Source: Podospora anserina
Taxonomy: Eukaryota
Length of the DNA stretch: 23,628 nucleotides
Direction: 5' to 3'
NCBI GenBank assembly: GCA_017654855.1
Contig: CM030335.1
Span: 3,906,001 to 3,929,628 of the forward strand
Part shown: one piece after another, positions 1 through 23,628 of the stretch
Layout of the letters: each line of letters begins with the position of its first letter
Position numbering within the stretch: the stretch's first letter is position 1
Notes under the pieces: model-generated
What the model was told of the DNA's origin: nothing
Databases searched by the model: none
What the model saw: only the letters and a program-made list of their open reading frames with translations
Made by a program: the position numbers and the translations under genes

Positions 1-228
1 GGTCATAATGGGAGTCAACGAAACCCCTCTGGTTATGCACGACGCGCGGCGTCTATGCAATTTTCAATGGTTCCGTACCCAACAGATTGGGTAATGACGG
101 ACCGACGGTGATCTCATGGCACTTGATATACGACTCTTCAAACGCTTGATTGTCCGTCTAGCCATAACTGTGGATACCTATATTGCTGCAAGGGGTTGCA
201 ATTATCCCCGACCCGCGTTTGCGAGACA

Positions 229-366
229 GGCTAGAAAGCAGCCGGCTATTACCACCAGTCTCAACGATCACGAGTCTGTATGTTTTCTGGGGTAAAGGCA
301 ATTACCAGGATCCACCGAGAATCTGGGGAACTCCGCACATTTGGCATTGATGGTATTCCGGCTAAA
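229..366 (+). promoter_or_regulatory. Candidate XlnR/Xyr1 (GGCTAR) and CreA/Cre1 (SYGGRG) sites upstream of the lactonase
   Basis: GGCTAG 229-234, GGCTAAA 360-366, CTGGGG 287-292 and 323-328. These are short motifs and could be chance matches. Confidence 0.35.
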
Positions 367-498
367 AGGGGAGAGCTTACAATCCAGCCGCCACCACCTA
401 GACGATCGCATCATGGTTGTTTGGGCATCTTTAAAAAGGGACTCTTGTTCTCGTTGTGTGAGCCAAGTTCTTGGTCATACCGCAACCTCATTCTTACC

Positions 499-1717
499 AT
501 GCTTCGCCTCGCATTGTTGGCCGGTATTGGCCTAGCCAAAGGGGCATTGGGTGTCAATCTCATTGCCTCTCACTTCAGCGGCGGCATCTATACCCTTTCT
601 CTGACCACCACAGGTACCAGCGGTACCATCTCGGTGACATCTCAAACCAACGGATGCGGGACTACTCCCGGATGGATTGAGTTGTACTCCGACACTCGAA
701 AACTTTATTGCTTTGACGAATCGTGGACGGGTCGCGGCCAACATGCCGAGTTCAACGTTCAGAACGATGGACGGCTTTCCCTAGCCTCGTCTTTGCAGGT
801 TTCAGGCAATTCTGTGCATGGGATTCTTTACGGCGGTCCCGATGGCAGGAGTTACATTGCCACGGCCGAATAGTACGTTTCCCGCTCAACTCCTCAAAAC
901 CACAATGACCTTTCCTTGACACACCCGCAGTTCTCCCTCAACCATTACCACCTACAAGCTTCCCCTCCAGGGCAGTCGGGTACAACAGACGGAAAAATTC
1001 ACCCTTGCTCGTCGTGGGCCCCATCAAAGACAGGATGTCCCTCATCCCCACGAGGTGCATCTTGATCCTACCGGAAAGTTCATCCTTGTTCCTGACCTGG
1101 GTGCCGATTTGATCCGCGTGTTCCGCATTGACACCAACTCTGGCCGTCTCACTTCATGTGCTTCCCACGCAACCGGTGCCGGTGACGGACCTCGTCACGT
1201 AAAGTTCTGGAAGTCGGAGAGCGGCAAGGAAAAGGTTTTCTCCCTCAACGAGCTTGGCAATTCCGTTTCTGCCTGGGATGTCAACTACACCAACGACTGC
1301 ATCTCGCTCACCAGGACTCACAGCATCTCCACCTACGCCCCCGGCAAGAAAGGTGGCGCCAACACCAAAGCGGCCGAGATTCGTACTTTTGGAAACTTTT
1401 TGTACGCTTCCAACAGAGCTGATCAGACGTTTGGCAACTCTCAGGATTCCATCGCCATTTACACCATCGACCCCACCACTGGTGCCATTGCCTGGCTTGA
1501 GGCGGCCAACAGTTACTCGTACTATCCCCGTACATTTGCCTTCAACAAGAACGGCACCCTCGTCGCCATTGGTGGTCAAACCTCGAGCAACGTGGCTATT
1601 GTGGCAAGAGACACTGCAACTGGTAAGCTTGGAAACTTGGTGGCCAACGTCCAAGTAGGCCAAAAAGGCCGGGCTGGTGAAGAAGATGGTTTGAGTGCTG
1701 TTGTCTGGGCCGAGTAA
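499..1717 (+). CDS. Secreted lactonase-family 7-bladed beta-propeller (6-phosphogluconolactonase / carboxy-muconate cyclase-like, probable extracellular aldonolactonase); exons 499-872 and 931-1717, 386 aa
   Basis: ATG at 499 (accATGc) opens a signal-peptide-like MLRLALLAGIGLAKG. Splicing 873-930 joins the 280..873 and 1055..1717 ORFs in frame (TA+T = Tyr, then SPSTITTYKLP...RQDVPHPHEVHLDPTGKF). Family motifs: HPH, PDLGADLIRVF, GPRH, LNEL, YASNR, YPRTF. Confidence 0.9.
873..930 (+). other. 58-nt spliceosomal intron of the lactonase gene
   Basis: GTACGT donor at 873, candidate branch motifs (aatgac, ccttgac), and ccgcAG acceptor ending at 930. Removal restores a continuous frame. Confidence 0.9.
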
Positions 1718-2458
1718 TATTGAAAAGGGCTATAAAAATAAGCAGAGGCTAAGAAAATAAGCATTCCGGTATTCCCTCTCTGTCGCTCCGCTTCACATTT
1801 AAGATTGAGCATGCAGATCCTCGTAATGAAACGCCAGCTGCAATGAGCATAACCAGGTCGTGTCCTCTTATTTCGCAAAAGCTGGGCTTGCAGAATCCGT
1901 GACCAGATGCAGGATCAAGAGCTTCGTTTTCTTTTCTCTCAAATTACCAACCTGTTCCTTGAGACGAGCTGCCAGAAGCAAAACCGAAGCATTTGCATTG
2001 CTACTGTCAAAGTATGTGAATCCCAAAAACGGTTCACACGCCTTCTATCCCACTGTTCATGACCCAAAGACCGACAGATGATGCACGAAGGCATCAAGAG
2101 CTGAAAACTTGGAAGCAGTCAGAACCGATCGTGGCTGTTGCAAGCCAATGGTCATCTCGATGATTTACATTGACTCCCTGTTTCACTAGAACCTTGCAAC
2201 TGTCCATAGGTTTTATCTAAGTTCAGATATAATACCTAACTCTTGATGCTCAGCACCAATATGTCTACCTACCGCCAAACGCCAAGCCAGATCCAAAGCA
2301 ACCACGCAAAATACATTCGTGTAAAAGCCAACTATTCAAACCAACCTTACCTGGAGGACATACAATCCAGATATACACCCACACTGTCACCGCAAAAATC
2401 CTCCAGTAATATCCTTCGGTCTTCAACCTTCATTGTCAAATTGTGGTAAAGCCCACGT

Positions 2459-3700
2459 CTATTTCTTCCCAGATACCGTGGTCTTCTTCGCTGTCGTAAC
2501 AGGGACAGAAGTCTTGGTCGCCGTAGCAGTCTTGGTCGCAACGGGGGCCGATGTTTTAGTCGCGGCGGGGGCTGAAGTCTTGGTTGCAGTAGAAGTCTTG
2601 ACGGCAGCAGTGGTCTTGGCCGCTGTCGTCGCGGTCGACGTCTTGAGTCCCGTAGTATTAGCCGGAGCTGGGACCTTTTGACCTGGTTTGCTAGCTTGGG
2701 TGTTGAGGCCAGAAGTTGACTTGTCTGCCAAAGCCGGTCGTCCGGTTGCCGGTGTGGGTTTCGCGGTTGCTGTCACGGGCTTCGAGGTCGGAGCTTTAGT
2801 AGAAGCGTTGTTGACAGGTACTGAACCGGTAGTGTTTGAAGGGCTAGTCCTGCCACCTGTCGCACCCCCTCCGGTGCTAGGCCCGGGCCTCCCGGTACCG
2901 CTCTGACCAGTGGCCCCCGTTCCACTTCCACCGGCGGCGCCTGATCCTCCCCCTCCGCCAGCCGGGGGTGTTGGGAGCTGAAGGCCACCACCGCCTTGAC
3001 CAGCGAGCCACTGTGGGTGCGGCTTTACCCAAGCCACATTCAATGTGTTGCAGCATTTCTGGCAGTTCGGATCCTTGGGTCCTCTGCTGCACGGCTCTTG
3101 AATCCCAACGTAATTGTTGGGTCCCTTGCCTGGAATCCGGCCATAGACGAGCATCTTGACCGGAGAGTTTGCTGGTGACTTGGCATAGTAACGTCCGCCA
3201 CGAACGTGTTGTGAGCGGGCCTCTTTCTCGAACCAGCTCTCAAAGACATACCAGACTCCATCTTCGGCATGGAGCTCACGGGGCCCATCTCTTGTCTGTT
3301 TCTTTCCATCCGCCGAGAGCACGACACGTGAAACAGCGTCCCACCAGGCTTGCGCTTTGTACCAGCCTTCGTCAGTCTTGAGATATTCGTTGAACCTGCC
3401 CCTCGGAATCGTGCATTGGAACACCATACCACCTCGTGCAAAGCCCATGTTGACGTAAAGGGTAGCTACGAGAAGGGAGCTGGTCGTTGAGGTATAGGCT
3501 CCCTTGTTCGCATAGTTTCTGTGCAGCCAGTCGAATGCCTCCTTTCCCCAGGCCTCAAGCTGTCTATCTGTTGGCTCCTCGGGTCCGTCAAACTCCCAAT
3601 GTCTGTACCAGACGGCACCTCCCACGTTATTGAGTGGGGGTGCTTGATCTTCCTGGCCCCAGATCTGGAGAGGAGTGTTGAGCGGAACGATGGCTGCCAT
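2459..3700 (-). CDS. Uncharacterised 413-aa protein: N-terminal domain with a zinc-deaminase-like HAE...PC-x8-C signature and a Gly/Thr/Ala/Lys/Pro low-complexity tail
   Basis: Long uninterrupted ORF with a strong start context (ccaccATGG) and a TATATAA about 175 nt upstream. Motifs ELHAEDG (HAE at 3263-3271) and EPCSRGPKDPNCQKCC (about 3050-3097). No signal peptide is apparent. Confidence 0.8.
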   Translation of the reverse strand: MAAIVPLNTPLQIWGQEDQAPPLNNVGGAVWYRHWEFDGPEEPTDRQLEAWGKEAFDWLHRNYANKGAYTSTTSSLLVATLYVNMGFARGGMVFQCTIPRGRFNEYLKTDEGWYKAQAWWDAVSRVVLSADGKKQTRDGPRELHAEDGVWYVFESWFEKEARSQHVRGGRYYAKSPANSPVKMLVYGRIPGKGPNNYVGIQEPCSRGPKDPNCQKCCNTLNVAWVKPHPQWLAGQGGGGLQLPTPPAGGGGGSGAAGGSGTGATGQSGTGRPGPSTGGGATGGRTSPSNTTGSVPVNNASTKAPTSKPVTATAKPTPATGRPALADKSTSGLNTQASKPGQKVPAPANTTGLKTSTATTAAKTTAAVKTSTATKTSAPAATKTSAPVATKTATATKTSVPVTTAKKTTVSGKK

Positions 3701-3873
3701 GGTGGGGGATATGTCCCGAGTATACCAAAGTGTTCGGCGAGGAGATTAGTCCAAAAAAGGGGATAATAATGTAGGTGACTCGACCAGCGAGAATGAACTA
3801 GAGAAAGTATCAAGGCAGTGATGGTTGTCGTGATATGGTTCCAAACATCTTACGGACATGAAGAATAGTGATA

Positions 3874-3880
3874 TTATATA
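3874..3880 (-). promoter_or_regulatory. TATA box of the 2459-3700 gene
   Basis: TATATAA on the minus strand about 175 nt upstream of the ATG at 3700. Confidence 0.45.
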
Positions 3881-4883
3881 CATGGACCTGTCTTCCACTG
3901 GTAGTCCACAGAGCTCAAGAATAGCATAACACTATCATCTCCACACGCCTACTCTGCATCAGGCCCAGCATGTTAGAAGACGGGCCATCTTTCAGACCCG
4001 GTCATTGTGTCTGAGTACCTCTATTGAAACTGCCGCAAGACACCACAATGCTATGCTGCGGCGCTGAAATCGAAAAGAGTACCTGGCCATACGCTCAAAA
4101 TGAAAGGGACAATTCTTCAGTTGCAATATCTGATGTGTCCATACCGAGATATCTCGCATCTCACAAACAGCGGCCACGGCAGATAATATCGGTATGTGCC
4201 GTAATGGTGAATGACGTCCGACGGTTTCTATCGAGAATAATGTCCCAGGAGAGAGTTCAAGTTTTCGCCTGCTGTCTTCTGTTTCCCTGGCTGGCTTACT
4301 GGTCTGGTCGTTGAAGCTCATGGTCTCACATTACCTTACGCCGCAACGACCTGACACATAGGCCACCATGGTTGGCTGGCTAGATTCTCTTTTAGTCAGG
4401 CTGAGGTGGTCAGCTGCCCACTGGCGTGCATGGTTGGCTGTTTCTCTTGACTGCACAGCGACTAAGCGAAGTTGCACTGCCAAACGCTTTCTTCATCTTT
4501 CGCCTCGCTATGCGCACTCATCATGGACTCGCAGAACGTATGTGCTTTCCATCGAAGTAAGGTACCGATGTTCGAATTGCTCAGTATCCCTTTCCTTTTG
4601 ACCCAACGGATTGGAGGCGGCACAGTGCGAAGGGACGGGGCAGTTTAGCGGCGGCCCCCAACGGTCACATGCATGTGGCACAAGCCGCACTCGGTAGCCA
4701 ATAGCTTCAGATCTTAATGGCTTGCGACGCGTTGTTGTCGCCAATTGAGAGACCACCGCGTTTCACCATCGCCACGTCTGTCAGCGGCCACCGGTGTCTC
4801 AATGCTTGGATTCAGCTATTTTCACCTTCGACCTCTCAACAACCGCCAACTCGTCGACCTGTCCAAAGCTCACCACCCTAACT

Positions 4884-6854
4884 ATGCCGCTACCTCCAAT
4901 CCTGCGCCTCTCGCCTGACACCCGCCGCAGAGTTTACCTCTACTTGGGCCTTGCACCATGGAAGCCAGCCGAGAGATACATTTTCAATCTACATAGAGGC
5001 AACGTGTTGATGGATGAATCCGATGACAGCACCAATCCTGTTCAGTTCCACGGACTTCTCCTCTCCTGTCGTGTCATCTACCAAGAAACAGCTGTCCTGC
5101 TGTACTCAGCCAACAGTTTTGTCGCCTACTTGGAGGATGACTGTGACCGTCTGCTGGCCCTGACCACAACTGCAATCTCTTCACTCACTCATCTCAAGAT
5201 TGTTGTCAACCAAAATTCCTGCCACCAGCAATGCACCCAGTGCATCAACTCCCGGATTGAGGATTCTAGTCTTTATTGCTACCACCAACCGACCCCCGAA
5301 CCTTGCGATGAGGATGCTTCACAGGCAGCAGACCAACCACCGAATGGGCGCCTTTTGACCAGCTCAGATACAACAACCGAAAGCCTGTTTGAGAATTGGC
5401 GTTCAGCTATTGAGCATCTCTCTGCGAGTCTTTTGCCTGGTCGCCTCACATTATCCGTGGTTTGCGATGTCGCGCACGATGACCTCAAGGCTGGCAAGCT
5501 TGTTGTCGCCCCAATGGCTTTACTGCCACGACTTGATGACTGCCACATTAGGCTTAGCTGGAGGGCCAATGCAAAGCTTCAACAGCTTGCTCGCGACGCT
5601 GTTGAGCAGGCACGCTGCATTGCATTGCCAAAGTCCACTGCCCCTTCTTCTTCCTCGCCTCTTCTGCGTCTTCCACGTGAGCTGCGGTTGCGTATACTCG
5701 CATACACAGATCTTGTGACCCCAATTAGGGAGGTGTCATGGGATGGGGAAACTTACAAAGCTGATGGGTCTTCAAATTACCATTCGTGGCATCGCGCGGG
5801 CTTTGTCAATGAGACACTCGCTAGATGCCGAAGCGACCATCATTATGGGTGTCAATTCAAAAGCTGCTGGTCTCGAGGCTCAGCTGACCGCTACATTGGT
5901 TGTTTCTGTTCGGTTCGACACGCCGCCGTCTCATCAACATGCCGTTGTTGGTCACCACCGACGCCGCTCTTTCTTGTTTGTCGCAGTCTGTGTTACGAGG
6001 CTCAGCATGTGTTCTTTTCCTCGAATCGTTTCATAGTTCACGATCATGTCTACACTGATACCAACTCGGGAACTCGGATGCAATCTACATGGGGGTTGAG
6101 CACATATCCCCATGCCCGCCTCACAGCCAGCAAGTTCCTTCGAGACAAGGTTCCCGATAACTCTCTTGGATCGATCCGCTTTCTTGAGCTCACTTTCCCG
6201 GCTTACAGCCACGAGGCGTGGCCTGATCCGGATGGGCCGGCAATTAAAGAATGGATCGAGACCATCAAACATGTCAACGACAAACTCAACAAACCTGGCC
6301 TTACACTTCGTATCATCATGGCAGATGCTGCACACAGCGCACAAGAGACACAACGCACCATGACGGATGAGAACGGAGAGGTGGTCAAGCGTGCGTACAC
6401 GAGTCTCATCGATCCGCTAAGATGTTTGGGTCAGGACTGCACAGGCGAGCCCTTGCACAGATTTTACGCCCATCTTCCAGACCCATTGGCGTGGACTGAA
6501 GCGAATGAAGCGTTGCTTGCTGAAGATCCATGTAAATACTTTCATGGGATCAACTTGAAAGAGCAAAAGCTACGTGAGGAGGCAGAGCGGTTAGTCTTGG
6601 GCGATGAGCGCTATGAGAAGCAGTGGGGCTTCGCCGGTGTAGACGTTGGGCACACTGGAGGAGGAGAGGGAAAGGATGACTATCATGACGATGGCAGAAG
6701 CGACAAAGATAACGACTACGCGATTAACGAGGCATCTGGTACGTTGTTGGCCAAGACGTTGGAGGAATGGGACGAGGATGAAAAAGAGCTAAAGGAGCCA
6801 AAGGGAAGCTACTGGTTATTCTTTCACCATCTTCTTCGATCGGGAGCTTTATAG
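4884..6854 (+). CDS. Fungal protein with two F-box-like modules (656 aa)
   Basis: First in-frame ATG is at 4884 (the ORF-track start at 4794 is GTG). Two motif pairs: PPILRLSPDTRRRVYLYL...LLLSCRVIYQETAVLLYSANSF and PLLRLPRELRLRILAYTDL...LFLVCRSLCYEAQHVFFSSNRF, each with a Cys/His-rich stretch. Acidic C-terminus. Confidence 0.75.
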   Translation: MPLPPILRLSPDTRRRVYLYLGLAPWKPAERYIFNLHRGNVLMDESDDSTNPVQFHGLLLSCRVIYQETAVLLYSANSFVAYLEDDCDRLLALTTTAISSLTHLKIVVNQNSCHQQCTQCINSRIEDSSLYCYHQPTPEPCDEDASQAADQPPNGRLLTSSDTTTESLFENWRSAIEHLSASLLPGRLTLSVVCDVAHDDLKAGKLVVAPMALLPRLDDCHIRLSWRANAKLQQLARDAVEQARCIALPKSTAPSSSSPLLRLPRELRLRILAYTDLVTPIREVSWDGETYKADGSSNYHSWHRAGFVNETLARCRSDHHYGCQFKSCWSRGSADRYIGCFCSVRHAAVSSTCRCWSPPTPLFLVCRSLCYEAQHVFFSSNRFIVHDHVYTDTNSGTRMQSTWGLSTYPHARLTASKFLRDKVPDNSLGSIRFLELTFPAYSHEAWPDPDGPAIKEWIETIKHVNDKLNKPGLTLRIIMADAAHSAQETQRTMTDENGEVVKRAYTSLIDPLRCLGQDCTGEPLHRFYAHLPDPLAWTEANEALLAEDPCKYFHGINLKEQKLREEAERLVLGDERYEKQWGFAGVDVGHTGGGEGKDDYHDDGRSDKDNDYAINEASGTLLAKTLEEWDEDEKELKEPKGSYWLFFHHLLRSGAL

Positions 6855-7213
6855 GAAGCTAATAAACAAAAGGGCCTTAACTGAAAGTCTGCAACAAAGG
6901 ATACCGATAGGATTTGGATAAGAGACTACAAAGGTACCGTGGATTTCCAGAATGGAATAGAAGTATAATTACTTTTAGCAGGTCCTTTTAATAGCTTACG
7001 ACTAAGTACAAGCGTAAGTTGCAGATAAAAAAATAAATTGTAAAATAAATAAGAAAAAAAAGGAAAGTTAGATATATTATTTACGATATCTTTTTAGTTT
7101 TCTTAAGCCCTATCAGTAATTCTCCGATGGATTGTAGTACAATCCGTTGAAAAGCGCACCAAAAAAAAAGGCCCCACTTTAGAAACAGGGGGTAGGATCC
7201 GTTAAAGAATTTA

Positions 7214-8157
7214 GTTGTACGATCCGATGAGATTTCTCCCGTCAAAATAAAATTTAAAGATAGTATTAGAATCGCCTGAACGAGCTGTATAGATGGTATA
7301 AGGTGTATTATCGTACGAGCGGTGTGGAATTATAATTAAAAAATATGAAGTTGGGTGTTCGTGTACTAGTAATATATATAGTTATTAAAGTGAGGTTAGG
7401 TAATGGAAAAGTAAGTTATACGATCCGATGGAATTTCTCTTATTAATAAAAAAAGTAAAGATACTATTAAAATTATTTAAATAAGCTATATAAAATAGTA
7501 TAAGGTATATTATTGTACGAGCGGTATGGAATTATAAGTAATAGATATAAAGTTAGGTATAAGTATATTAGTAATGTACGTAGATAGTAAAGTGAGGTTG
7601 GGTAATAAAAAAGTAAATTATATAATCCGATAGGATTTTTCCTATTAATATAAAAAGTAAAAATACTATTAGAATTACCTAAACGAGCTATATAAAATAG
7701 TATAAAATATATTATTATACGAGCGGTATAGAATTATAATTAAAAAATATAAAGTTAGGTATTCTTATATTAGTAATATACGTAATTATTAAAGTAAGGT
7801 TGGGTAATAGAAAAGTAAGTTATACGATTTGATAGGATTTCTCTTATTAATATAAAAAGTAAAGATACTATTAAAATTGCTTAAACGAGTTATATAGAAT
7901 AATATAAAGTATATTATCGTACGAGTAATATAAAAGTATAAATAGTAAATATAAAGTTACGTATAAGTATATTAGTAATATATATAAATAGTAAAGTGAG
8001 GTTAGGTAATAGAAAATTAAGTTATACGATCCGATAGGATTTTTTTTATTAAAATAAAAAGTAAAAGTACTATTAGTATTACCTAAACGAGCTATATAGA
8101 ATAGTATAAAGTATATTATTATACGAGCGGTGTGGAATTATAAATAAAAAATATTAA
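7214..8157. repeat. Tandem array of about 4.7 copies of a ~202-bp unit
   Basis: The anchor TAC/TAT-RATYYGATR recurs at 7218, 7419, 7621, 7823 and 8025. Shared blocks aacgagctatata, tacgagcggtRtggaattata and aaagtgaggttRggtaat. Confidence 0.93.
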
Positions 8158-8188
8158 ATTAATCGACTTTTATTATTATACGACTTAT

Positions 8189-8707
8189 TTAATTATCGGA
8201 ATTATTAATAACTATAGGTTCTTAGCTCTCTTCCGCCGCTCTTTTATTTCCCTTGCTTTTTTCTTTGGCTTTAGTACCGCTTTGTTTAGCGGTATAAAAG
8301 CTATATTTATTACTATAATCCCTTTACTTATAGTTACTATAAGTATTACCCTAGTACCTATTTATCGTACGATAATCCTTAAACGGCCCTCTATTAGGCT
8401 TACTAGTATAGGTAGTATAGGGAGAGGTAGCTACTAAACTACGGCTCTAAATTAAGATTATATTTAGGTAGCTCGGACGAGCTAGTACTTTAGCCCCCTT
8501 TACTTTGCCGGAAACGTATTCGATATCGGCCGATAGTAGAGCCGAAATTACTTATTATATCTCCTATATATTTATTAGTTTAAATATTATTATACGGGAA
8601 AAATATATATTAATATTAATATAAAAGCTTTTTATTAGCTTTTTAATATAAAGCTAGCTAGTGTCAATAACTTCGTACGAGCTACAGGTAATAAGGATAA
8701 AAGTTAT
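8189..8707 (-). pseudogene. RIP-inactivated DUF3716-like six-cysteine protein
   Basis: One minus-strand frame reads ARPSYLNIILI*SRSLVATSPYTTYTSKPNRGPFKDYRTINRY*GNTYSNYK*RDYSNKYS. De-RIPed this gives RPSYLNAILIQSRG..PCxxC..GPFKDC..ACGNCKWRDHGNKCS, matching my recollection of the DUF3716 consensus. RPSY is at 8468-8479 and the stop at 8189-8191. The start is approximate (ATA at 8705-8707). Confidence 0.75.
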
Positions 8708-9037
8708 TTTAAATATTTATTTAAAAGTTAATTGATTTATACGATTAAAAGTTTATTAGAAAAGGGCCTTATTTAAAATTAAACCTATATCTTTAGAAAC
8801 TTTAAGACTATATATACCGCTTAGTTATTATGCTTTAAGATCTTTATATTACTTCTTAAGCGATAATATTTGTAAACGATAAATCTATAAACCCCGTATA
8901 AAAATTATATAATACTTTAATATTCTATTATATAATATTTATATTATTTTATTATACGATATTTATATTATATAATAATACGATAGGCTTACTATATAAC
9001 TATCCGGGAACTAAATATCTATATCTTTTAATTAAAC

Positions 9038-9359
9038 CTTATCGTACGGTACCTAGACGGCTTAATCGGAATAATAAGGCTCTGTTATATAGCTAGGCTG
9101 TCGAGGCATTTGGAAGAAAAGGCCTGCTTTAAAAGAAAAAGTCTGCTTTTATAGCCCTAGACCCCGGCAACCGCACGCCACTGCCTTCCTACCCAGGCAC
9201 GCCCTGACCATTATACGGCACCCAGACGGCTTAATCAGAATAATAAAGCTTTATTATACAGCTAGCCTATCGAGGGATTTAGAAAAAAAGGCCTGCTTTA
9301 GAGGAAAAGGTTTACTTTTGCAAACCCAGACCCCGGCAACCGCACGCTACTACCCTTAT
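9038..9359. repeat. Two tandem ~169-bp direct repeats, the second ending at the Gypsy insertion site
   Basis: cggtacctagacggcttaatcggaataataa...agaccccggcaaccgcacgccactgcc at 9047 versus cggcacccagacggcttaatcagaataataa...agaccccggcaaccgcacgctactacc at 9216. Confidence 0.9.
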
Positions 9360-9743
9360 TGTCACGGCTTAACACTTTAGTGGGGCGCGGGGCGCACCAC
9401 GGGCCAATTATTAGTACAGGAGCGAGGACTAATTAGAGTAGGATTATTGGGATCGAGGATCGATCCAGAAGAGTCAATCCCAAAAGGGACAGTATCGATA
9501 GGATCGATAGTCGAGTTAATCGATCCAGGACAGTGCTAAGCTTAGCACAGGGTCTATATATACGGAGGAACTAGCTAGTGTAAATAGACAGTTCCGTAGT
9601 ATATAATTTAAGCCTGTATTTACGGTATTTAGTATTTATATTAAAATATTTTATTATATATTATTTAGCTACACCGAACTAATTATTAAAAGTTACCTTT
9701 AATTAGTATCCCTTTTAGAGGTTTTATATAGGGGTTCGTTATA
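9360..9743 (+). repeat. 5' LTR (384 bp)
   Basis: tgtcacggcttaacac...ggggttcgttata, colinear with 15771-16154. Confidence 0.95.
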
Positions 9744-9796
9744 CGTTATATACTTACTTTAACTTTATTACAGATAAATTAAAAGTATAAAACGCT

Positions 9797-10948
9797 ATAG
9801 CCGGAAACGTTAGTATTTAAAGGATCCCGACCTAACCTACTATCGACTAGCTTCTCGCCCGTATTTAAAAGCTTAAAGATAAGTTACGCCTTTCCCACAA
9901 CACCCTTACGCAAGAAAACGCTATACTTTACTAAGAAATTAGTACTTTACGCAGGGAGGGAAAGCGTATAAAGCTCGAGGCACTTAATCGCTATAGAGGT
10001 ATAAAGGGAGAGCTAGGAAAATTCTTAATCTAACTTAAGGTTTACTTTCGGTACTACCCTTCTCGTTTTCCAGACGAAAAATCTAAGGTTATATACGCTA
10101 CGTCCAGGCTTAAAAATATGGTACTTACGTAGTTCGAGCCGATTTTAGGAGATTACTTTAATAATACGTTTAATTAGAGGGAAGATATTACCTAAATATA
10201 TTTTAAATTATATAAAGGCTTTAAAAAGAAGATTAAGGAGGTATTTAGGGAGTATAATAAAGGTAGGCGTGCCCAGGAGCGACTAACCAACCTTAAGCAA
10301 ACTCGATCTACTACCGATTACGCTATAGTATTTAGGACAGACGTACTCCGTAGCATAATTAACGATAAACGGTTAATATAAACGTTCTACAACGGGCTTA
10401 AAGAAAAAGTTAAGGATAAGCTATATCGGATAGAACGACCGGAGACCATTAACGAGTATATCGCAATAGTAATCCGCATCGACGATCGATAATACTAGCG
10501 CCGTAAAAAGCGTAAAGGTATACGCATATAAGGACCCTACCACCCTAATAATAAAAGGAAAAGACGACCGTACGGTACTTACGTTTTAAGAACCACCTAC
10601 GCAGGACTTATAGAAGTCGATACTATTTAGTAGTAAAGGCCGTAAGGTTAAGGCCAAAGTAAAGAGAACTTTAAGTATTTTAATTATAGTAAAGTAAAAT
10701 ACTTTAAAAAGGATTATAAGGCACCTAAGTAACTCGGTTAGAAAAGGGAAATCGTAATAACTACTATATTAATAGAACCGAAAGTAATAAAGGTTACAGC
10801 TATCGGATACTAGCTAAGTAGAGCAAAGAACCGCTACTAGGTATAGATACGAAAAAGTATTAAAGAAATAAGAGGTAGAAGATAGGAGGAAGCTAGGCGG
10901 GTATAGTTAAAAGACTTTATATTACTAAATAACCCGGAGTAAAAAAAC
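9797..10948 (+). pseudogene. gag: gag (RIP-mutated)
   Basis: Frame from ATA (formerly ATG) at 9797: KLEALNRYRGIKGELGKFLI*LKVYFRYYPSRFPDEKSKVIYATSRL...*FEP, then LKQTRSTTDYA and FYNGLKEKVKDKL. Zinc knuckle YFNYSKVKYFKKDY (= CFNCGKxGHFKKDC) starts at 10676. The end is approximate. Confidence 0.88.
10942..10948 (+). promoter_or_regulatory. Candidate -1 ribosomal frameshift heptamer A AAA AAC between gag and pol
   Basis: The heptamer is phased correctly in the gag frame, and the protease and RT motifs lie in the -1 frame. RIP may have altered the exact bases. Confidence 0.55.
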
Positions 10949-13900
10949 GCTTTTAAACGATATAACCGCTTAAAAAATAATTTACGGCCCTTCGTAAGAG
11001 CCGGTAACCTTTAATGGACTACGAACGGTATTTTCGTAAATATCGGTGTAAAGTAAAAGTATAGGATAACGACCCGGTATTTACTAGCGAGGTCGCTACT
11101 ATATAGAGAAAAAGTAAGAAAAATAAACGCCTCTAAGTTATAGCGTACTAAAAAGATATTTAGGCGGTAGTATTAGTAAACGGAGGTATAGAGACAAACT
11201 TAATTTCGCTATAGTTCGTATACTAGGCTAAGATACTATAGAAGAAAAAGAAGGAATGGATCGTTATATAAAGACTATTTCCGACGTAAAGAGTCTATAG
11301 AGAAATATTACCTTTAATTATTATAGTTAAAGGAAAGATAAGTTTAATTATATTCGATATTATAAATATAGAACCCTCGAAAGATATAATTCTAAAGTAA
11401 TTATAATATAAAAACTATAATTTAAATATCGATTAAAGGGATAATAATTACCTACGACCGAAAGAACCTTAAAAGTATTTAGTTAACGATAAAAGATTAA
11501 GAGTATATATAGAGTAGAGTGTAGGATAAATACCCTTTACGGTACTACCGTAAAGAGCTTAAGAAATAATAATATACTTTATCGATATAGGCGGTAAGAT
11601 TGAAGAAATAGGGTTAATAACGTTAGTAGAGATATCGGAGGTTAATAAGTATATTTACTATAATAACGTAGAGAAAGGCGAGAAAAAAGCGGTACCGGTA
11701 GAATATTAAAGATACCTAGCCTTTACGGCTAAGTATTTAGAGAGGCTTTTAGAGCGAGGACCGTAAGATTATAAAATTAAGTTAAAAGAAGGAATTAAAT
11801 TATAACTATTTAAGGTCTATTATATTAACGATAAGCAGAGTAAAGAGCTACGGAAGTACTTAAATAAAAATCTAAAGAAAAGATATATTAAGGAGTCTAT
11901 ATTATTAGCAGAATACCCCGTATTTTTCGTACCGAAGAAGGACGGTAGTTTACGATTATATATAGACTACCGTTAATTAAATAACGTAACGGTAAAAAAC
12001 AATTACCCGCTACCGTTAATATCTAAGTTACGGAGTTAATTAGTAGGGGCGCGATACTTTATACGCTTAGATATACTTATCGGATATATTTATATACGGA
12101 TTAAAGAAAAAAATAAATAAAAGATAGCGTTTCGTATATTTTATAATTATTTCGAGTATTTCGTAATACTATTTAAGCTAACTAATATACCTGTAACGTT
12201 CTAATCTCTTATTAACTATACGATCCGAAAGTACTTTAATAAAATAATAGTATATTACCTCGACGACGTTTTTATCTATTTACGTACTTTAAAAAAGTAT
12301 AAGCGATACGTATAAGAAATATTCGACGCGCTATACGGAGCTGGACTTTTAATTAATAAGGAGAAAAGCGAGTTTTATATATAAAAGATAATATATTTAG
12401 GATATTTAATATCGCTAGGTAAGGTTTATATAGAACTAAGGAAAATTATAATAGTTAAAGATTAGTTTATACCGTAATTATAAATATACGTTAGGGAATT
12501 TTTAGGGTTTATAAACTTCTATCGGATATTTATTCGTAGGTACGTAGGAATCGCGCGACTATTTAACTACTTAACTAAAAAGGACGTAGAGTTTTAGTGG
12601 GGGTAGGAAGAGAAGTAGGCCTTTTAGGAGCTAAAAGAAGCTATTTTAAAGGACCCGGTACTTAAATTACTAAACTTTAATCGATTATTTAAGGTCGAGG
12701 CGGATATATTAGACTATACGATCGGTAAATAGTTAGGATAGCGAGATAATAACGGGAAGCTATACCTAGTAGCTTTCTTTTTAAAGAAATTAAAGGGGGT
12801 ACGTTAAAACTATTTAATCTATAATAAAGAACTATTCGCTATTATCGAAGCGTTCGAGGAGTGGAGGCTATACTTTAGTAGCACTAATTACGAAGTACAG
12901 GTCTATACGGATTATAAGAATCTACGATACTTTATTACTACGAAGGTCCTTAATGTACGGTAAATACGATAATTAAAGTTTCTTTCGGAATTTAACTTTT
13001 AAATTAATTATAAAAAGGGATCGGAAAACGCTAAGGTAAACGCACTTAACCGGCGATCTAATTACTATAAGGATGCACTTAGAGAATTATTACTATTACT
13101 CGAAAAGATATTAAAAGGTACTTTTAAATATCTACTTTAGCCGTAGATAGAGTGTTGCGTAGTATATCGTAAGTAAGCTACTTTTAGTAATAAGTATTAA
13201 GGAAGGCTAAGTAACGATATTACGGAGTAATACTAGTAAGAAAAGTTAAAGCTATAAGGTATCTAAAAAGATAGTTAGGGAAGACTGTAGTATAAGAATC
13301 GAGCGTACGTAATGCTAGGTAATAGGACGATACTAATAATAAAGATTTACGGATCGAAGTTCGGAGGATATATAGGTATCGCTAAGACTATAGAAAAGAT
13401 TAAGTAGCACTTTAACTAGCTAAAGATTAAGGATAACGTTAAGGAAGCTATTTAATTATATTATACGTATAAGAGAATAAAGGTTACGAGGTATAAGCTA
13501 TACAGATTTTTAAAGCTATTATTAATAGTAAAATAATTATAAAGTTTAGTTACAATAAACTTTATTACTAAATTACTAGAGTTAAAAAATACGGTAACCG
13601 GCGTTAAATACAATAGTATATTAACGGTAGTCGATAGGTTTACTAAGTAAATATACTTCTTATCTTATAAAGAAACTTAGTCGGTAGAGTAATTAACGGA
13701 TATAGTACTACGGTATATTATAGTAATATATATATAGTTAAGGGAATTTATTACGGACCGCGACACTAAATTCGTATTGAAGTTTTAGAAAGCGTTAATA
13801 ACTAGGCTAGGGGTAATAAGTAAAGCGTTTTCGGCCTATTATTTTTAGACGGACGGTTAAACGGAACGGTTTAATTAAATCGTAAAATAGTATTTATAAA

Positions 13901-14603
13901 ATTATATTAATTTTAAGTAGGACGATTAGGTTAAACTATTACTTACGGTATAGTTAATATATAATATATTACTAATAGAGACTACGAAAGTTATACCCTT
14001 CTTCGCGAATTTCGGCTACGAAGCAGACTTACGGTAGGGACTTACGGTTAAGGTATTTAGGGCTAAAGTTAAGGTAAATAAACTATATATACTTTACGGT
14101 AAGCTAAAGTAAGAGCTGGAGTTTATAAGGGAAAGGATATAGAAATACTATAATACTAAAAGGCTCGAGGGACTTTACTTTAAGAGGGGGAATATAGTAT
14201 TTTTTTTATACGTAATTTACGTATTAAAAGACTTAGTAAGAAGCTAAACTATAGGAGAGTAGGCCTATTTAAGGTTAAAAGAAAAATTTTAAAGACGGTA
14301 TTCGAATTGAAGTTACTTAGTACAATACGTTTACGGTTATATACTTTTTATATTTTACTTCTGGAACCCGTACTATATATAAATAAAGCTAATATATAAG
14401 TAGTGGCGGAGGACGAAGAAAAAGAATATAATATAGAAAAAATACTAGATTTACGGTTTAATAAAAATTAATTAAAGTATTTAGTTAGTTAGTTAGGATA
14501 TTTAACTATAGATAATTCGTAGGAACTAAAGGTATATCTTAATTGCCCGGATAAGTAAAAAGTATTTTACCGGTAATACCTAGACCGACCAAAACCTAAA
14601 TAA
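10945..14603 (+). pseudogene. pol: pol (protease, reverse transcriptase, RNase H, integrase, chromodomain), RIP-mutated
   Basis: PR VLVNGGIETNLIS (= ALVDGGAETNLIS) at 11170. RT FFVPKKDGSLRLYIDYR near 11925 and YLDD at 12256-12267. RH EADILDYTIG near 12697. IN INFITKLL (= MDFITKLP) at 13555, ITDRDTKF at 13750, TDG*TERFN at 13849, and GLFKV (= GPFKV) near 14262. Chromodomain EYNIEKILD..YLVS*LGY..DNS*EL at 14424-14590. Confidence 0.93.
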
Positions 14604-14658
14604 GTAAAAAGACCCAGCCCTAGGTTATAGCCAGACGGCTATAATATAGAGCTAAAAA

Positions 14659-14728
14659 AACCTCGGTAAAAATCGAACCTATATTTTCGACGTAGTGGTC
14701 GATATACTACACGCTATACTACGAGGTT
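14659..14728 (-). ncRNA. tRNA-like cloverleaf 1 in the retrotransposon 3' region (70 nt, 6-nt anticodon loop)
   Basis: Minus strand: AACCTCG TA GTAT AGCGTGTA GTAT A TCGAC CACTAC GTCGA AAAT ATAGG TTCGATT TTTAC CGAGGTT. It has a perfect 7-bp acceptor stem, a perfect 5-bp anticodon stem and a GGTTCGA T-loop, followed by a T-run. Confidence 0.7.
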
Positions 14729-14868
14729 AATAGGTATAAAAGAATTTAGGCTTAAATAGTACTATATGCCTCTACCGCAGTAGGAAAGAGCCGAAAATAT
14801 ACGACCGGCAGGGTAGCTAAAAAAATAGTATTTAAATTTACGGACTAAATCTATAAATTTAGATATAG

Positions 14869-14938
14869 AACCTCGACGGGAGTCGAACCTATACCTTCGA
14901 TTTAGTAACCGACGTGTTATATATTATATTACGAGGTT
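14869..14938 (-). ncRNA. tRNA-like cloverleaf 2 in the retrotransposon 3' region (70 nt, 6-nt anticodon loop)
   Basis: Minus strand: AACCTCG TA ATAT AATATATA ACAC G TCGGT TACTAA ATCGA AGGT ATAGG TTCGACT CCCGT CGAGGTT. It has a perfect acceptor stem and an intact B-box GGTTCGACTCC. Confidence 0.72.
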
Positions 14939-14980
14939 AGAAGGTATAGAAGGACCTAAGTATAAGTAATACTACGCGTC

Positions 14981-15664
14981 TTAACTACCCTAAGAAATAA
15001 AAGGCGCGCCTTTAGCGGTACCTTACGGAGTTAGGAAGGAAGGACCGGCTACGCCCGGGTCCAAAGAAAGGTTAGGCGGCTAGTCGAAGCCTAAGGAAGG
15101 GTCCAGGAAAGAAAAGTCGGAAGGAACGAGGGCGGAGGACTTTACCGCGGGATAATCCGGGGGACCTAAGGGAGTAAAAGTAAAAGAGGGAGCGTCGTTA
15201 AATAACGAGGGAGCTTGCGCGGCTAGCGTAGCCTTCTCCTACTCTATACACTTTAGCTCTTTAATACTGTCGAGGCTACGGGAAATAGCTATAGCTATTT
15301 ACCTAAACTATATTCGTTTCTATAAACGTAAACGGTTAATTTTTTAATTTAAAGCCGCACGTTAAGACTCGGCCTCTACTATTTCCGTCTCTAACTAATC
15401 GTATTAAGAAATAACTTTACGGAGCTACTAAACGGATAACCCACGAGCGTTATAAAGGGATTAATTATATTATATATAAGAAGCGTAACGCTTAAAGATA
15501 GAAGGGGAAATCTTATATAAAAAACTATACCTTTTATAAAAGGAATAAATATGCTTTATAATAATAGTAAACCGAAGGATAGTAATAAGTAGCTCGTTAC
15601 GATCCGCTATTTTCGAGTATAAGGGTTTAATACTAAGTTATACTTTATTTACGCGGTTAAATAT
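14981..15664 (-). pseudogene. Antisense accessory ORF of the retrotransposon (~227 codons): Zn2Cys6-like cluster, coiled coil and acidic Ser/Pro tail, RIP-mutated
   Basis: Single frame with no frameshift, and all internal stops are TAA/TAG. 15547-15452 reads Y-SF-Y-KRYSFL-Y-KISPSIFKR-Y-AS-Y-I*YN*SL-Y, followed by LETEIVEAES*RAALN*KINRLRL*KR, ISRSLDSIKELK and PSDFSFLDPSLGFD*PP. Confidence 0.68.
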
Positions 15665-15754
15665 AATAAAGTATAATAAATAGAGGAAAAAGGGAAGAAC
15701 TTATAAGTATTAGTAGACGTAAGAAAGTAGGCTAGGCCGACGGGACTTTAGTTT

Positions 15755-15770: not shown

Positions 15771-16154
15771 TATTACGGCTTAATACTTTAGTAGGGCGCG
15801 GGGCGTACTACAGGCCAATTATTAATACAAAAGCGAGGACTAATTAGAGTAGGATTATTAGGATCGAGGATCGATTTAAAAAAGTTAATCTTAAAAGGGA
15901 TAGTATCGATAAGATCGATAGTCGAGTTAATCGATCCAGAATAGTGCTAGGCTTAATATAGGGTCTATATATATAAAGGAACTAGCTAGTATAAATAAAT
16001 AGTTCCGTAGTATATAATATAAGCCTATATTTACGGTATTTAGTATTTGTATTAAGATATTTTGTTATGCACTATTTAGCTACACCGAACTAATTATTAG
16101 AAGTTACCTTCAACCAATATCCCTTTTAAAGGTTTTGTATAGGGGTTCGTTACA
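15771..16154 (+). repeat. 3' LTR (384 bp)
   Basis: tattacggcttaatac...ggggttcgttaca, followed by the CTTAT target-site duplication. Confidence 0.95.
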
Positions 16155-16287
16155 CTTATCCACTTATACGTAACCCACTTTACCTTTAATAGGGTATCCT
16201 TTTCTAAAAAAACTTACTAATAAACTTTAATTTAATAATATCTCGCATTATATATAACTATTATATTACTATTAATACTATATTAAA

Positions 16288-20602: not shown

Positions 20603-21379
20603 TACTGCGGTTTTTTTAAAAAAAAATATATATACATATATATATTTTAGAAATAAAAGTAAAAATAAACAAAAATATTATATTATAATAGTAAAAGAAT
20701 ATATAAAATTAATTATAATATTATAAAGATATTTATATAATAAGAGCTTACTAGTAAGCTATACTATACGTAGGAAAAAAAAAGATATTATAGGCTCGCA
20801 AGCTATATAATAAGTACCAGAACGGCCTGATTAGAGGGCTAGAGTATCTCATATACGTATAATATATAAAATATAAAAAAAAAGTCGATATTGTATGTAA
20901 AATAAAATATTAGAAATAAACTATATATAAATATACTAGACAAACTCCCTAATTCTTTAAAAAGTTTATATTATTATTTATACTTTTAAGAATATAGTCT
21001 AACTTTATATAAATATATATATAAAACTTTAAATATACTATTTTACGAAAAATATAATAATGTTTTATAATAAATAAGACATTAATAAATATAAAAAGAG
21101 GTTTTATTAATATTTATAAATAGTACAAAGAAATTAAATGATAAATAAAGAAAGAAAGAAAAAAGTAACTAAATAAAGAAATAATATATAGCAATAAAAG
21201 AATATTATTAATTAAATAGATTTAAAATATAAAGTTTATTATTCTTTGTAAATTAAATAAATAAAGTTAGAATTATATAAATATAAATATATAAATGTTA
21301 ATAGCTAATATATATGAGTTAAAAAAACTAGATATTATCATATAAAGATTTAAAGAATAAATAATTGCTATATATAAGT

Positions 21380-23628
21380 AGGAAAGTGCCCGAACCGCTA
21401 TATATATATATAAGGATATATAAAGACTAACTACTATATATAAGTAAGAAGGCACCGGAATTACTATACGTATATTCAAAGCTATATAAAAACTAATAAC
21501 TATATATAAGTATAAATGTATTAAACCCGCTATATATACCTAAAAAAAAGTCTTAACCGCTATGCATATAGTAAAAAAAGTACTAACCGCTATATATATA
21601 TTAAAAGGAATATTAACCTGTATATATATATGGAAAAAAGTACTAACCGCTATATATACGTAAGGAAAAGTATTAACCGCTATATATATAGTAATGAGAG
21701 TACTAACCGCTATATATATATAAGAAAAAGTATTAACCGCTATATATATATAAAAATACGTTAAAATTAACTGTGATATAAATATAAGAAGGAATAGTAA
21801 CCCGTATATATATGTGGAAAGAGGTACTAACCGATATATATATATATAAAGATACGTTAAACCTAACCGCTGTAAAAATATAGAAAGGAAGAGTAACCCG
21901 TGTGTATATGTGAAAAGAAGTGCTAACCGCTATATATATATATAAAGATACGTTAAAACTAACCGCATTATAAATATAGAAAGGAATATTAACCCGCATG
22001 TATATGTGGAAAGAAAAGCTAACCGCTATATATTTATAAAAAGAATTCTTAATTTTTAAAAATATATATAAATATCTATTAAAACTTACCGCTATGAATA
22101 TATAGAAAGAAATACTAACCGCTATATAGATATAGTAAATAGTGTTAACCGCTATAGATATATATAAAGATTCGTTAAAACTAAGCGCTATATATAACGT
22201 AAAAAGCGTATTAAATAGCTATATATCTATATAAAAGTATATAAAAATTAACCGCTTTATATATAGGAAGGAATACTAACCGGTATATATATAATAAAAG
22301 GAGTATTAATCGATAAATATAAAGAAAAAGACTATTAACGGTAATATATACATATATATATAAATTAATTAAAGTTAACTACTATATAAATATAGAAAGG
22401 AATATAAACTCGTATATATATATGGAAAAAGGGGCTAACCGCTATATAAATATAAGGATACGTTAAAACTAACCACTATAGAAATATAGAAAGGGATAGT
22501 AACCCGTATATATATATGGAAAAAAGTGCTCACCGCGATATATATATAAGGTTAGGTTAAAACTAACCGCTATAGAAATATATAAAGGAATTGTAAGCCG
22601 TATATATCTATGGAAAAAAGTACTAACCGCGATATATATATAAGGGTAGGTTAAAACTAACGGCTATAGAAATATAGAAAGGAATAGTAATCCGTATATA
22701 TAAAAAGGAAAAAGTGTTAACCGCTATATAAATATAAAAAGGAATATTAACTTATATATATATATAAAGAAAATGCTAACGGCTATAAATATATAAAAAG
22801 AAATTTTAATTATTATAAATATATAGAAAGATCCGTTAAGATTAACCGCTATAAATATATGGAAAGAAGTACTAACCGCTATATATATATAGAAAGAAGT
22901 GCTGACCGCTATATATATATAGAAAAAAGTGCTAACCGCTAAAAATATATATAAAGATACGTTAAAACTAAGCGCTATCTATATAGTAAAAAAAGTATTA
23001 AACCGCTATATATATATATATATAAAAGTATATAAAAAATCAACTGCTATATATATATCTAAAGATATATTAACCGATATATATATATATAAAGAAATAC
23101 TTACCGCTATATATAAAGAAAAAAAATATTAAATGCAATATATATATATATAATAAATAAAAACTAAGCGCTAGATATATAGTATAAGAAATACTAAACG
23201 CTATATTTATAGTAAAAAGCATGCTAACCGCTATATATATATGATAATATATTAAGACTAACCGCTATAAATATATTAAAAGAACTATTAATAGTAAAAA
23301 GCATAATAACTGCTATATATATATAATAATATATTTAAGACTAAGCGCTATAAATATATTAAAAAAAAAGTGCTAACAGCAAAAAGCATACTAAACGCTA
23401 TATATATATAATATTATGTTAAAACTAACCGCTATAAATATATTAAAAAAAGTACCAAAAAAAAAAAGCATACCAACCGCTATATATATATAATAATATA
23501 TTAAAACTAACCGCTATAAATATATTAAAAAAGTACCGACAGAAAAAAAAGCATACCAACCGCTGTATATATATAATGATATGATACGACTAACCGCTAT
23601 GATTATGTTAAAAGGAAGTGCTGCCCGC
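21380..23628. repeat. Degenerate ~30-bp minisatellite (core TAACCGCTATATATATA) with higher-order units, running off the window end
   Basis: Dozens of aaccgc cores about 30 bp apart. About 94-bp trimers at 21788-22030 and 22394-22730, and about 83-bp units from 23214 to the end. Confidence 0.92.

Follow-up and report, generated by a model that had tools for sequence, protein, structure and literature searches.

In this study, we analysed a 23,628-nt stretch of the Podospora anserina genome (referred to as the window, with positions counted from its first letter) that holds a plus-strand Ty3/gypsy chromovirus of the autonomous type, roughly 6.8 kb in length, and, behind the pol region of this element, two 70-nt sequences on the minus strand that descend from a tRNA gene. 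The element is bounded by two plus-strand long terminal repeats (LTRs), the 5′ LTR at 9364..9756 and the 3′ LTR at 15775..16166, which are identical at 344 of 393 positions (88% alike), and the purine tract AGAAAGGGAAG stands just before the 3′ LTR. Its pol region (11689..14603, plus strand) comprises reverse transcriptase, ribonuclease (RNase) H, integrase, an SH3-like domain, and a chromodomain, as revealed by Pfam matches and tblastn. The Pfam matches in the element were to gag, reverse transcriptase, and two RNase H-like families, and the SH3_Tf2-1 match reached 20 bits, under the Pfam cut-off of 30. The chromodomain, at about 14409-14590, was recovered by tblastn with the pol C-terminus of a related locus, L001 (E 2.5e-29), and the database proteins nearest to the window pol bear Pfam PF00385. 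All of the features by which a Ty3/gypsy chromovirus is recognized (LTRs, gag, reverse transcriptase, RNase H, integrase, C-terminal chromodomain, and purine tract) were thus found. A gypsy/Ty3 family named crapaud appears in one Podospora paper (PMC6660238). Many stop codons made by repeat-induced point mutation (RIP) interrupt the window pol, and the RIP indices of the element are 1.72 for TpA/ApT and 0.16 for (CpA+TpG)/(ApC+GpT), whereas the genic part of the window gave 0.68 and 1.25, respectively. There is also a frameshift in pol near 14160-14201; contigs of other genomic copies have an extra C after 14201 or 14202, indicating that the window copy of pol lost one base.

The two tRNA-derived sequences, copy 1 (14659..14728, minus strand) and copy 2 (14869..14938, minus strand), start 210 nt apart. 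Along the plus strand, about 55 nt separate the pol stop from copy 1, 140 nt lie between copy 1 and copy 2, and about 45 nt lead from copy 2 to the end of an antisense open reading frame (ORF), with the start of this ORF, the purine tract, and the 3′ LTR further to the right. The tRNA lies 837 nt ahead of the 3′ LTR on the opposite strand, and the LTRs themselves gave no Rfam tRNA match. Both copies have the acceptor arms AACCTCG/CGAGGTT, T8-A9, and GGTTCGA, and in both the anticodon loop between 5-bp stems is 6 nt long (CACTAC in copy 1, TACTAA in copy 2), with A at the second position, instead of the 7-nt loop with U33 that characterizes a decoding tRNA. In a pair table that was set up from hand-set segments rather than by automatic alignment, and that also includes the tRNA of the relative L051 described below, copy 1 has kept 7/7 acceptor pairs, 4/4 D-stem pairs, 5/5 anticodon-stem pairs, and 4/5 T-stem pairs, while 2/4 D-stem pairs are left in copy 2; a RIP-type transition can account for each stem position left unpaired in the window copies. 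The copies differ from each other at 22 of their 70 positions, by 21 transitions and one transversion. Of the internal boxes, the B box GGTTCGACTCC survives intact in copy 2, and the A box of the window has degraded.

The duplication extends beyond the tRNA itself. The upstream flank of copy 1 (14729..14800, minus strand) duplicates, within the 210-nt unit, that of copy 2 (14939..15010, minus strand), about 65 nt being alignable between the two units by MAFFT, and the antisense ORF relic has its 3′ end within the flank of copy 2. Tandem Repeats Finder left this 210-nt duplication undetected. A T-run resembling an RNA polymerase III (Pol III) terminator abuts copy 1 (14654..14658, minus strand), and a second T-run (14819..14825, minus strand) lies 43 nt past copy 2; T-runs are, however, commonplace in RIP-mutated DNA. 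A scan for promoters and terminators was uninformative, its consensus being bacterial.

The Rfam tRNA model (RF00005), applied with lax filters, scored 31.1 bits for copy 1 and 27.5 bits for copy 2, the former above and the latter below the gathering score of 29 bits. In a 501-nt search with lax filters, both copies were aligned over the full model (positions 1-71), with E values of 1.2e-4 and 1.3e-3, and the anticodon loop was one base short in both alignments. When the whole window was searched on both strands with 4227 Rfam families, the copies were the top two of three matches (E 0.0057 for copy 1 and 0.059 for copy 2) and the sole tRNA matches. ARAGORN at a relaxed threshold read copy 1 as a tRNA with a two-base anticodon, that is, with a 6-nt loop. 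The tRNA likeness of the two copies, degraded as their sequences are, is beyond chance, and both are of tRNA ancestry. The original prediction, which had been made from the letters alone, is borne out in these respects. It had called the two sequences tRNA-like and had listed the acceptor stem, T8-A9, GGTTCGA, the 6-nt loops, the spacing of 210, and the T-runs, all of which were present on reading. It had set the sequences antisense in a chromovirus, as the LTRs and Pfam matches confirm, and had put the duplicated upstream flank at about 50 nt, for which the MAFFT alignment gave about 65 nt. The ORF that it saw ending just upstream proved by tblastn to be a real, conserved ORF about 45 nt away.

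Relatives of the element were collected by reading the window pol with X at its stops, which led to fungal chromovirus polyproteins, and an alignment of ten proteins then led to 79 metagenome loci (714 kb). The best polyproteins were 45-47% identical to the window pol, and the named ones were from Chaetomium and Sordaria; a scan of viral contigs for relatives found none. ARAGORN with introns allowed identified one tRNA in the 79 related loci, in the locus L051, and Rfam with lax filters found this same tRNA in L051, alone among the 17 related loci searched. ARAGORN by default reported no tRNA in the 79 loci, and a crude scan of the 714 kb for the combination of a B box and an acceptor stem yielded 42 candidates, of which, on inspection, none besides the window copies resembled an antisense tRNA behind pol. 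BLAST of the L051 spacer and tRNA against all loci returned the self-match alone.

The metagenomic element L051 is intact and carries a canonical, intron-bearing tRNA gene in the same place and orientation as the window copies. Its 486-bp LTRs are 100% identical, it is flanked by a 5-bp target duplication (GCAGG), it is without RIP signature, and its LTR start, TGTCACGG, is common to the window element. The gag gene (2883-5330) ends with TAA, and pol (5204-9220), in the -1 frame, ends with TAG. The tRNA gene (9770..9645, minus strand; Rfam tRNA 44.3 bits; 54-nt intron) lies 28 nt past the antisense ORF stop and 425 nt from the pol stop. Its anticodon loop is a normal one of 7 nt with U33, and the 54-nt insert sits within the loop. 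The positions that we take to be conserved among tRNAs (U8, A14, G18-G19, A21, U33, a purine at 37, and the T-loop GTTCGA) are present, as are an A box TGGCGCAGTGG and a B box GGTTCGACTCC, judged against what we assume to be the consensus, and TTTT follows about 40 nt downstream. With the intron excised at the canonical 37/38 site, the loop reads CU-CUA-AA, with the amber anticodon CUA, and the third-last intron base, G, could pair with C32, as splicing of the yeast type presumably expects. ARAGORN offered an alternative, Lys(ctt), in which the intron is set inside the anticodon; the canonical 37/38 placement appears the more likely of the two.

Some further properties of L051 concern the element as a whole. 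Its gag-frame ORF, at 815 codons, is unusually long and extends for about 450 codons past the zinc knuckle, and its integrase region has an extra cysteine-rich insert relative to the window. The possibility that the tRNA serves as the primer of the element itself was rejected because there is no complementary match of at least 8 nt within about 50 nt after the 5′ LTR. A 13-nt stretch at the LTR start (2373-2385 and 10444-10456) has a complement resembling the T arm of the tRNA at 12 of 13 positions, which may be due to chance (BLAST E about 3). Gag-pol expression by readthrough was also rejected: the gag stop is TAA, and pol, being in the -1 frame and overlapping gag, needs no readthrough. The left flank of the element (1-2361), in which two repeats are spaced by about 937 nt, has a RIP-like dinucleotide bias (TpA/ApT 1.97). 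As the element is un-RIPed and this flank RIP-like, L051 would seem to have inserted recently into DNA that RIP had mutated long before.

Comparison of the three tRNAs revealed that the T-loop TTCGACT is identical in L051 and the window copies and that CTA stands at the anticodon position in L051, copy 1, and copy 2. Over 52 comparable positions, 18 are identical in all three, 22 differ in the RIP direction only, and 12 differ otherwise; ten of these 12 fall within the five base pairs 6:67, 7:66, 29:41, 30:40, and 31:39, all of which are paired in the window. The window loops, (C/T)ACTA(A/C), correspond to the first-exon part of the L051 loop, CTCTAA, with T33 changed to A and the post-intron base missing. 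The 6-nt loop would most simply be accounted for by an intron deletion that removed one additional base, and, since this state is common to both copies, it is older than the tandem duplication. A conserved design of the 6-nt loop, whose conservation the original prediction had proposed to check, is not supported, as the un-RIPed L051 has a normal 7-nt loop, U33, and an intron.

The stretch is not confined to a single element copy. It was found in 20 sequencing runs from eight studies, all of one species and on record none of them RNA runs, and the contigs of four runs were compared at a likeness of at least 80%. Contig depth is not copy number; the other copies were seen as contig layouts, and the loop state was read in the window units. 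The summed contig depth over pol was 40 to 90 times that of the single window-identical contig in the four runs, and about 4 to 11 times over 14622-14997, the low depth continuing across the non-coding stretch into the LTR start, to 15843. In run X1, ten contigs have A at 14916, where the window has G. The spacing of two units is kept in one contig per run, in which 14506-14610 and 14768-14873 are separated by 157 diverged bases, a stretch of equal length. In runs X3 and X15, 14766 is joined to 14981, with 214 nt skipped and CT in between, which is the trace that a one-unit copy would give. The stretch thus recurs in the same species in diverged copies, some of them probably single-unit. The existence of another copy with two-unit spacing suggests that the altered version of the tRNA was present in elements that were still moving.

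Considering these results, we think it likely that the window contains the remains of a tRNA gene that was captured and carried by a chromovirus lineage, duplicated in tandem as a 210-nt unit, and decayed by RIP. According to this model, an ancestor of the lineage would have captured one tRNA gene, which was then retained and later lost in the branch of L001, and the gene would have been carried antisense between the pol stop and the antisense ORF stop. In live elements, it would form an independent Pol III unit by means of its internal A and B boxes, with a transcript that ends at the downstream T-run and undergoes the same processing as a host tRNA. Deletion of the intron and one loop base, and replacement of U33 by A, would have occurred in the Podospora branch prior to the tandem duplication, leaving a product that no longer decodes but whose four stems would have stayed paired until RIP. 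With the decoding features lost and the stems kept, any retained role would rest on the fold or the promoter boxes; thus, if the sequence was kept for a reason, the most likely one would be the tRNA fold or these boxes, through occupancy by Pol III/TFIIIC or processing by RNase P/Z, and not the anticodon. The window copies themselves, being RIP-degraded relics, offer nothing that argues for present function, and both are dead.

The number of captures was considered with a quick maximum-likelihood tree of the reverse transcriptase-RNase H region, which combined the window with 45 loci and 10 database proteins (56 rows in all); a locus was included only if it had a stop-free match of 440 residues or more. 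The window grouped with L001 and P0001-P0003 (Shimodaira-Hasegawa-like approximate likelihood ratio test [SH-aLRT] 95), L051 grouped with P0006/P0007 (SH-aLRT 99), and the two groups were sisters in one 8-row clade (SH-aLRT 96). Several results weigh against a single captured gene in this lineage. The window row is a very long branch with skewed composition. L001, a permuted one-LTR contig from a single element, is nearer to the window than L051 is and has the antisense ORF but no tRNA, so that one capture with a later loss costs the same number of events as two captures. Homology between the flanks of L051 and the window was not detected, a purine/pyrimidine local alignment being matched by 38 to 255 of 300 shuffles, and a tRNA is present in only 1/17 loci by Rfam and 1/79 by ARAGORN. 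Any two tRNAs differ by paired changes, and the seemingly compensatory pairs are therefore by themselves no proof of selection. With regard to detection, Rfam in gathering mode with default filters reported neither window copy, ARAGORN by default found no tRNA in the window, and the minimum-energy folds of the window copies and the L051 precursor were not cloverleaves (z-scores -1.84, 0.14, and -0.57). Introns and 6-nt loops escape ARAGORN by default, which gave blanks in the window as in the 79 loci.

The antisense ORF beside which the tRNA lies is a conserved feature of the clade. Its relic in the window (14984..15667, minus strand) was detected by tblastn with the antisense ORF of L001 (E 6e-22, 33% identity over 232 aa), and copy 2 begins about 45 nt past its end. 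In the clade, the ORF has about 190-235 codons and a CX2CX6CX8CX2CX8C motif resembling the fungal Zn2Cys6 cluster, with a coiled-coil-like stretch behind the motif; no Pfam family matched the ORF significantly. The L051 version (10359..9802, minus strand) has 186 codons, with the same motif and then a coiled-coil-like stretch. In the window relic, which has several stop codons, all six motif cysteines are now tyrosine, TGY to TAY being the change that RIP makes. By tblastn, the ORF was found on the minus strand right behind pol in L006, L001, L011, L009, L010, L008, L012, L002, L007, and L023. Each of these ten loci lacks the tRNA and shows an overlap of 101 to 899 nt (182 nt in L001) between the ORF and the 3′ end of the pol frame; only in L051 and the window are the pol and antisense stops separated by a tRNA.

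This arrangement raises the possibility, named in the original prediction by analogy to mascRNA, that the tRNA is a processing signal, in which case RNase P/Z would cut an RNA polymerase II (Pol II) antisense transcript at the cloverleaf and thereby make the 3′ end of the mRNA. Decoding would then be irrelevant and a 6-nt loop tolerated, which accords with the Podospora-branch version having its stems still paired while lacking U33 and one loop base, and the tRNA follows closely behind the antisense stop in both lineages, at 28 nt in L051 and about 45 nt in the window. However, the ten loci that have the antisense ORF, overlapping pol, and lack the tRNA indicate that the ORF is independent of the tRNA. 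The L051 gene, moreover, bears all of the ordinary marks of a Pol III tRNA gene, including the intron and the downstream T-run, which would be superfluous for a cleavage signal, and the short spacing may be a legacy of the original insertion point. We therefore regard a processing signal as unlikely.

It may also be asked whether the window and L051 lineages captured a host tRNA gene independently, or exchanged it by recombination, the shared position being then a coincidence or a hotspot. The tree position of L001, the undetectable flank homology, and the stems, which differ at five pairs as they do between different tRNA genes, are all compatible with two events. Nevertheless, the tRNAs occupy the same interval on the same strand, equally close to the antisense stop, their T-loops are identical, CTA stands at all three anticodon positions, and 40 of the 52 comparable positions are identical or differ in the RIP direction only. 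In addition, one tRNA in 714 kb of related loci means that captures are rare. On account of the agreement in interval, strand, T-loop, and CTA and of this rarity, one capture is favoured over two events, which appear quite improbable, and we infer that a single capture took place.

A bolder reading is that the lineage carries its own amber-suppressor tRNA, given the predicted CUA anticodon in L051 and CTA in both relics; we consider this very doubtful. If it were true, the suppressor could serve UAG readthrough (pol of L051 ends with TAG and has 67 more open codons behind it) or, alternatively, could blunt the amber codons that RIP makes from CAG and TGG. According to the part of the Podospora anserina genome paper drawn on here, there is no obvious suppressor tRNA in the genome (PMC2441463). 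Within the literature titles and abstracts searched, no autonomous retrotransposon that brings its own recoding tRNA is described. The outcome that the original prediction had named as fatal to it, in which a host tRNA gene or a tRNA-derived short interspersed element (SINE) was inserted once, into this single copy, and later duplicated, is hardly credible: tRNA-derived SINEs are common in fungi and pol has about ten times the depth of the tRNA stretch, but diverged copies of the stretch occur in four runs, L051 has its tRNA at the same place, the duplicated unit takes in about 65 nt 5′ of the tRNA, which is not expected from two SINE insertions, and the low depth extends over all of the non-coding sequence between 14622 and 15843, LTR start included, and thus points to fast divergence or a sub-family rather than to an insertion.

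As far as the consulted part of Kojima (2024) describes it, the TRIMp3 group is the closest known kind (PMC10886601). It comprises Cassandra, whose LTRs contain a sequence derived from 5S rRNA, Helenus, with tRNA-derived sequence in its LTRs, and Ajax; TRIMp3 elements are short (311-1263 bp) and non-autonomous, and the tRNA-like part of the LTR has been proposed as their own promoter (PMC10886601). Helenus is the source of all tRNA-Sup-CTA predictions in Uromyces and Cronartium, and the records of TRIMp3/Helenus reported there come from Pucciniales and a small number of Agaricomycetes, none of them from Sordariales (PMC10886601). The present lineage resembles this group in being an LTR retrotransposon with a sequence derived from a small Pol III gene, with conserved A and B boxes, that spreads tRNA-like sequence in fungal genomes. 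Unlike the TRIMp3 elements known from that source, the carrier is an autonomous chromovirus of roughly 6.8 kb from Sordariales, which holds the gene internally and in antisense orientation, in L051 as a full cloverleaf with an intron; the window element is thus no Helenus, which is defined as a non-autonomous terminal-repeat retrotransposon in miniature (TRIM) with the tRNA part inside its LTRs.

Other systems are similar in part. With tRNA-derived SINEs, the sequences share a tRNA-derived head, A and B boxes, and dispersal as repeats; however, a SINE begins at the tRNA head, has its own target duplications, and moves by itself, whereas here the upstream flank was duplicated together with the tRNA and the unit rides in an LTR element, as seen in both the window and L051. 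At the 3′ end of MALAT1, the non-decoding mascRNA takes on a tRNA-like fold immediately behind a Pol II transcript. The likeness of our case to mascRNA is one of position alone, as there is no stabilizing 3′ structure, the intact relative L051 has a normal tRNA gene, and the antisense ORF occurs without a tRNA in ten related loci. Phages and giant viruses, which have DNA genomes, carry complete host-type tRNA genes, usually explained by codon supply; in contrast, the carrier described here has an RNA stage in its replication, and its tRNA gene is antisense to this RNA. Literature titles and abstracts revealed no autonomous LTR retrotransposon with an internal tRNA gene, although the Helenus family tables of PMC10886601, which lie beyond this scope, may bear on Sordariales.

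The interest of these observations rests in the lineage, above all in the intact L051, the window feature itself being dead. In the sources consulted, sequences derived from small RNA genes in LTR retrotransposons have so far had only short, non-autonomous carriers, within whose LTRs they lie (Cassandra, Helenus, and Ajax). An autonomous chromovirus with a complete, intron-bearing tRNA gene, internal and reversed, would broaden this range, and the lineage may be another route by which tRNA genes, pseudogenes, and 'suppressor' predictions are scattered across fungal genomes. It also provides a tractable case for asking what use a Pol III gene could be to an element transcribed by Pol II, whether as a boundary, a processing site, or a source of antisense RNA or of recoding. 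For genome annotation, the window serves as a warning that tRNA relics decayed by RIP, when found in AT-rich blocks, can be retrotransposon cargo.

The surroundings of the element are of two kinds. Positions 1-7000 of the window are genic (GC about 52%) and include a gene at 4749-6854 that is 97% identical to a Podospora pseudocomata protein; an AT-rich repeat block follows. In the AT-rich DNA adjoining the genic part, a tandem array of about five 202-bp units, 73-84% alike, occupies 7208-8198, and two tandem 169-bp units, 83% alike, lie at 9045-9354, immediately 5′ of the 5′ LTR. At the other end, a long degenerate minisatellite (21340-23620), with periods of 30 and 94-96 nt and the core TAACCGCTATATATATA, reaches the end of the window.

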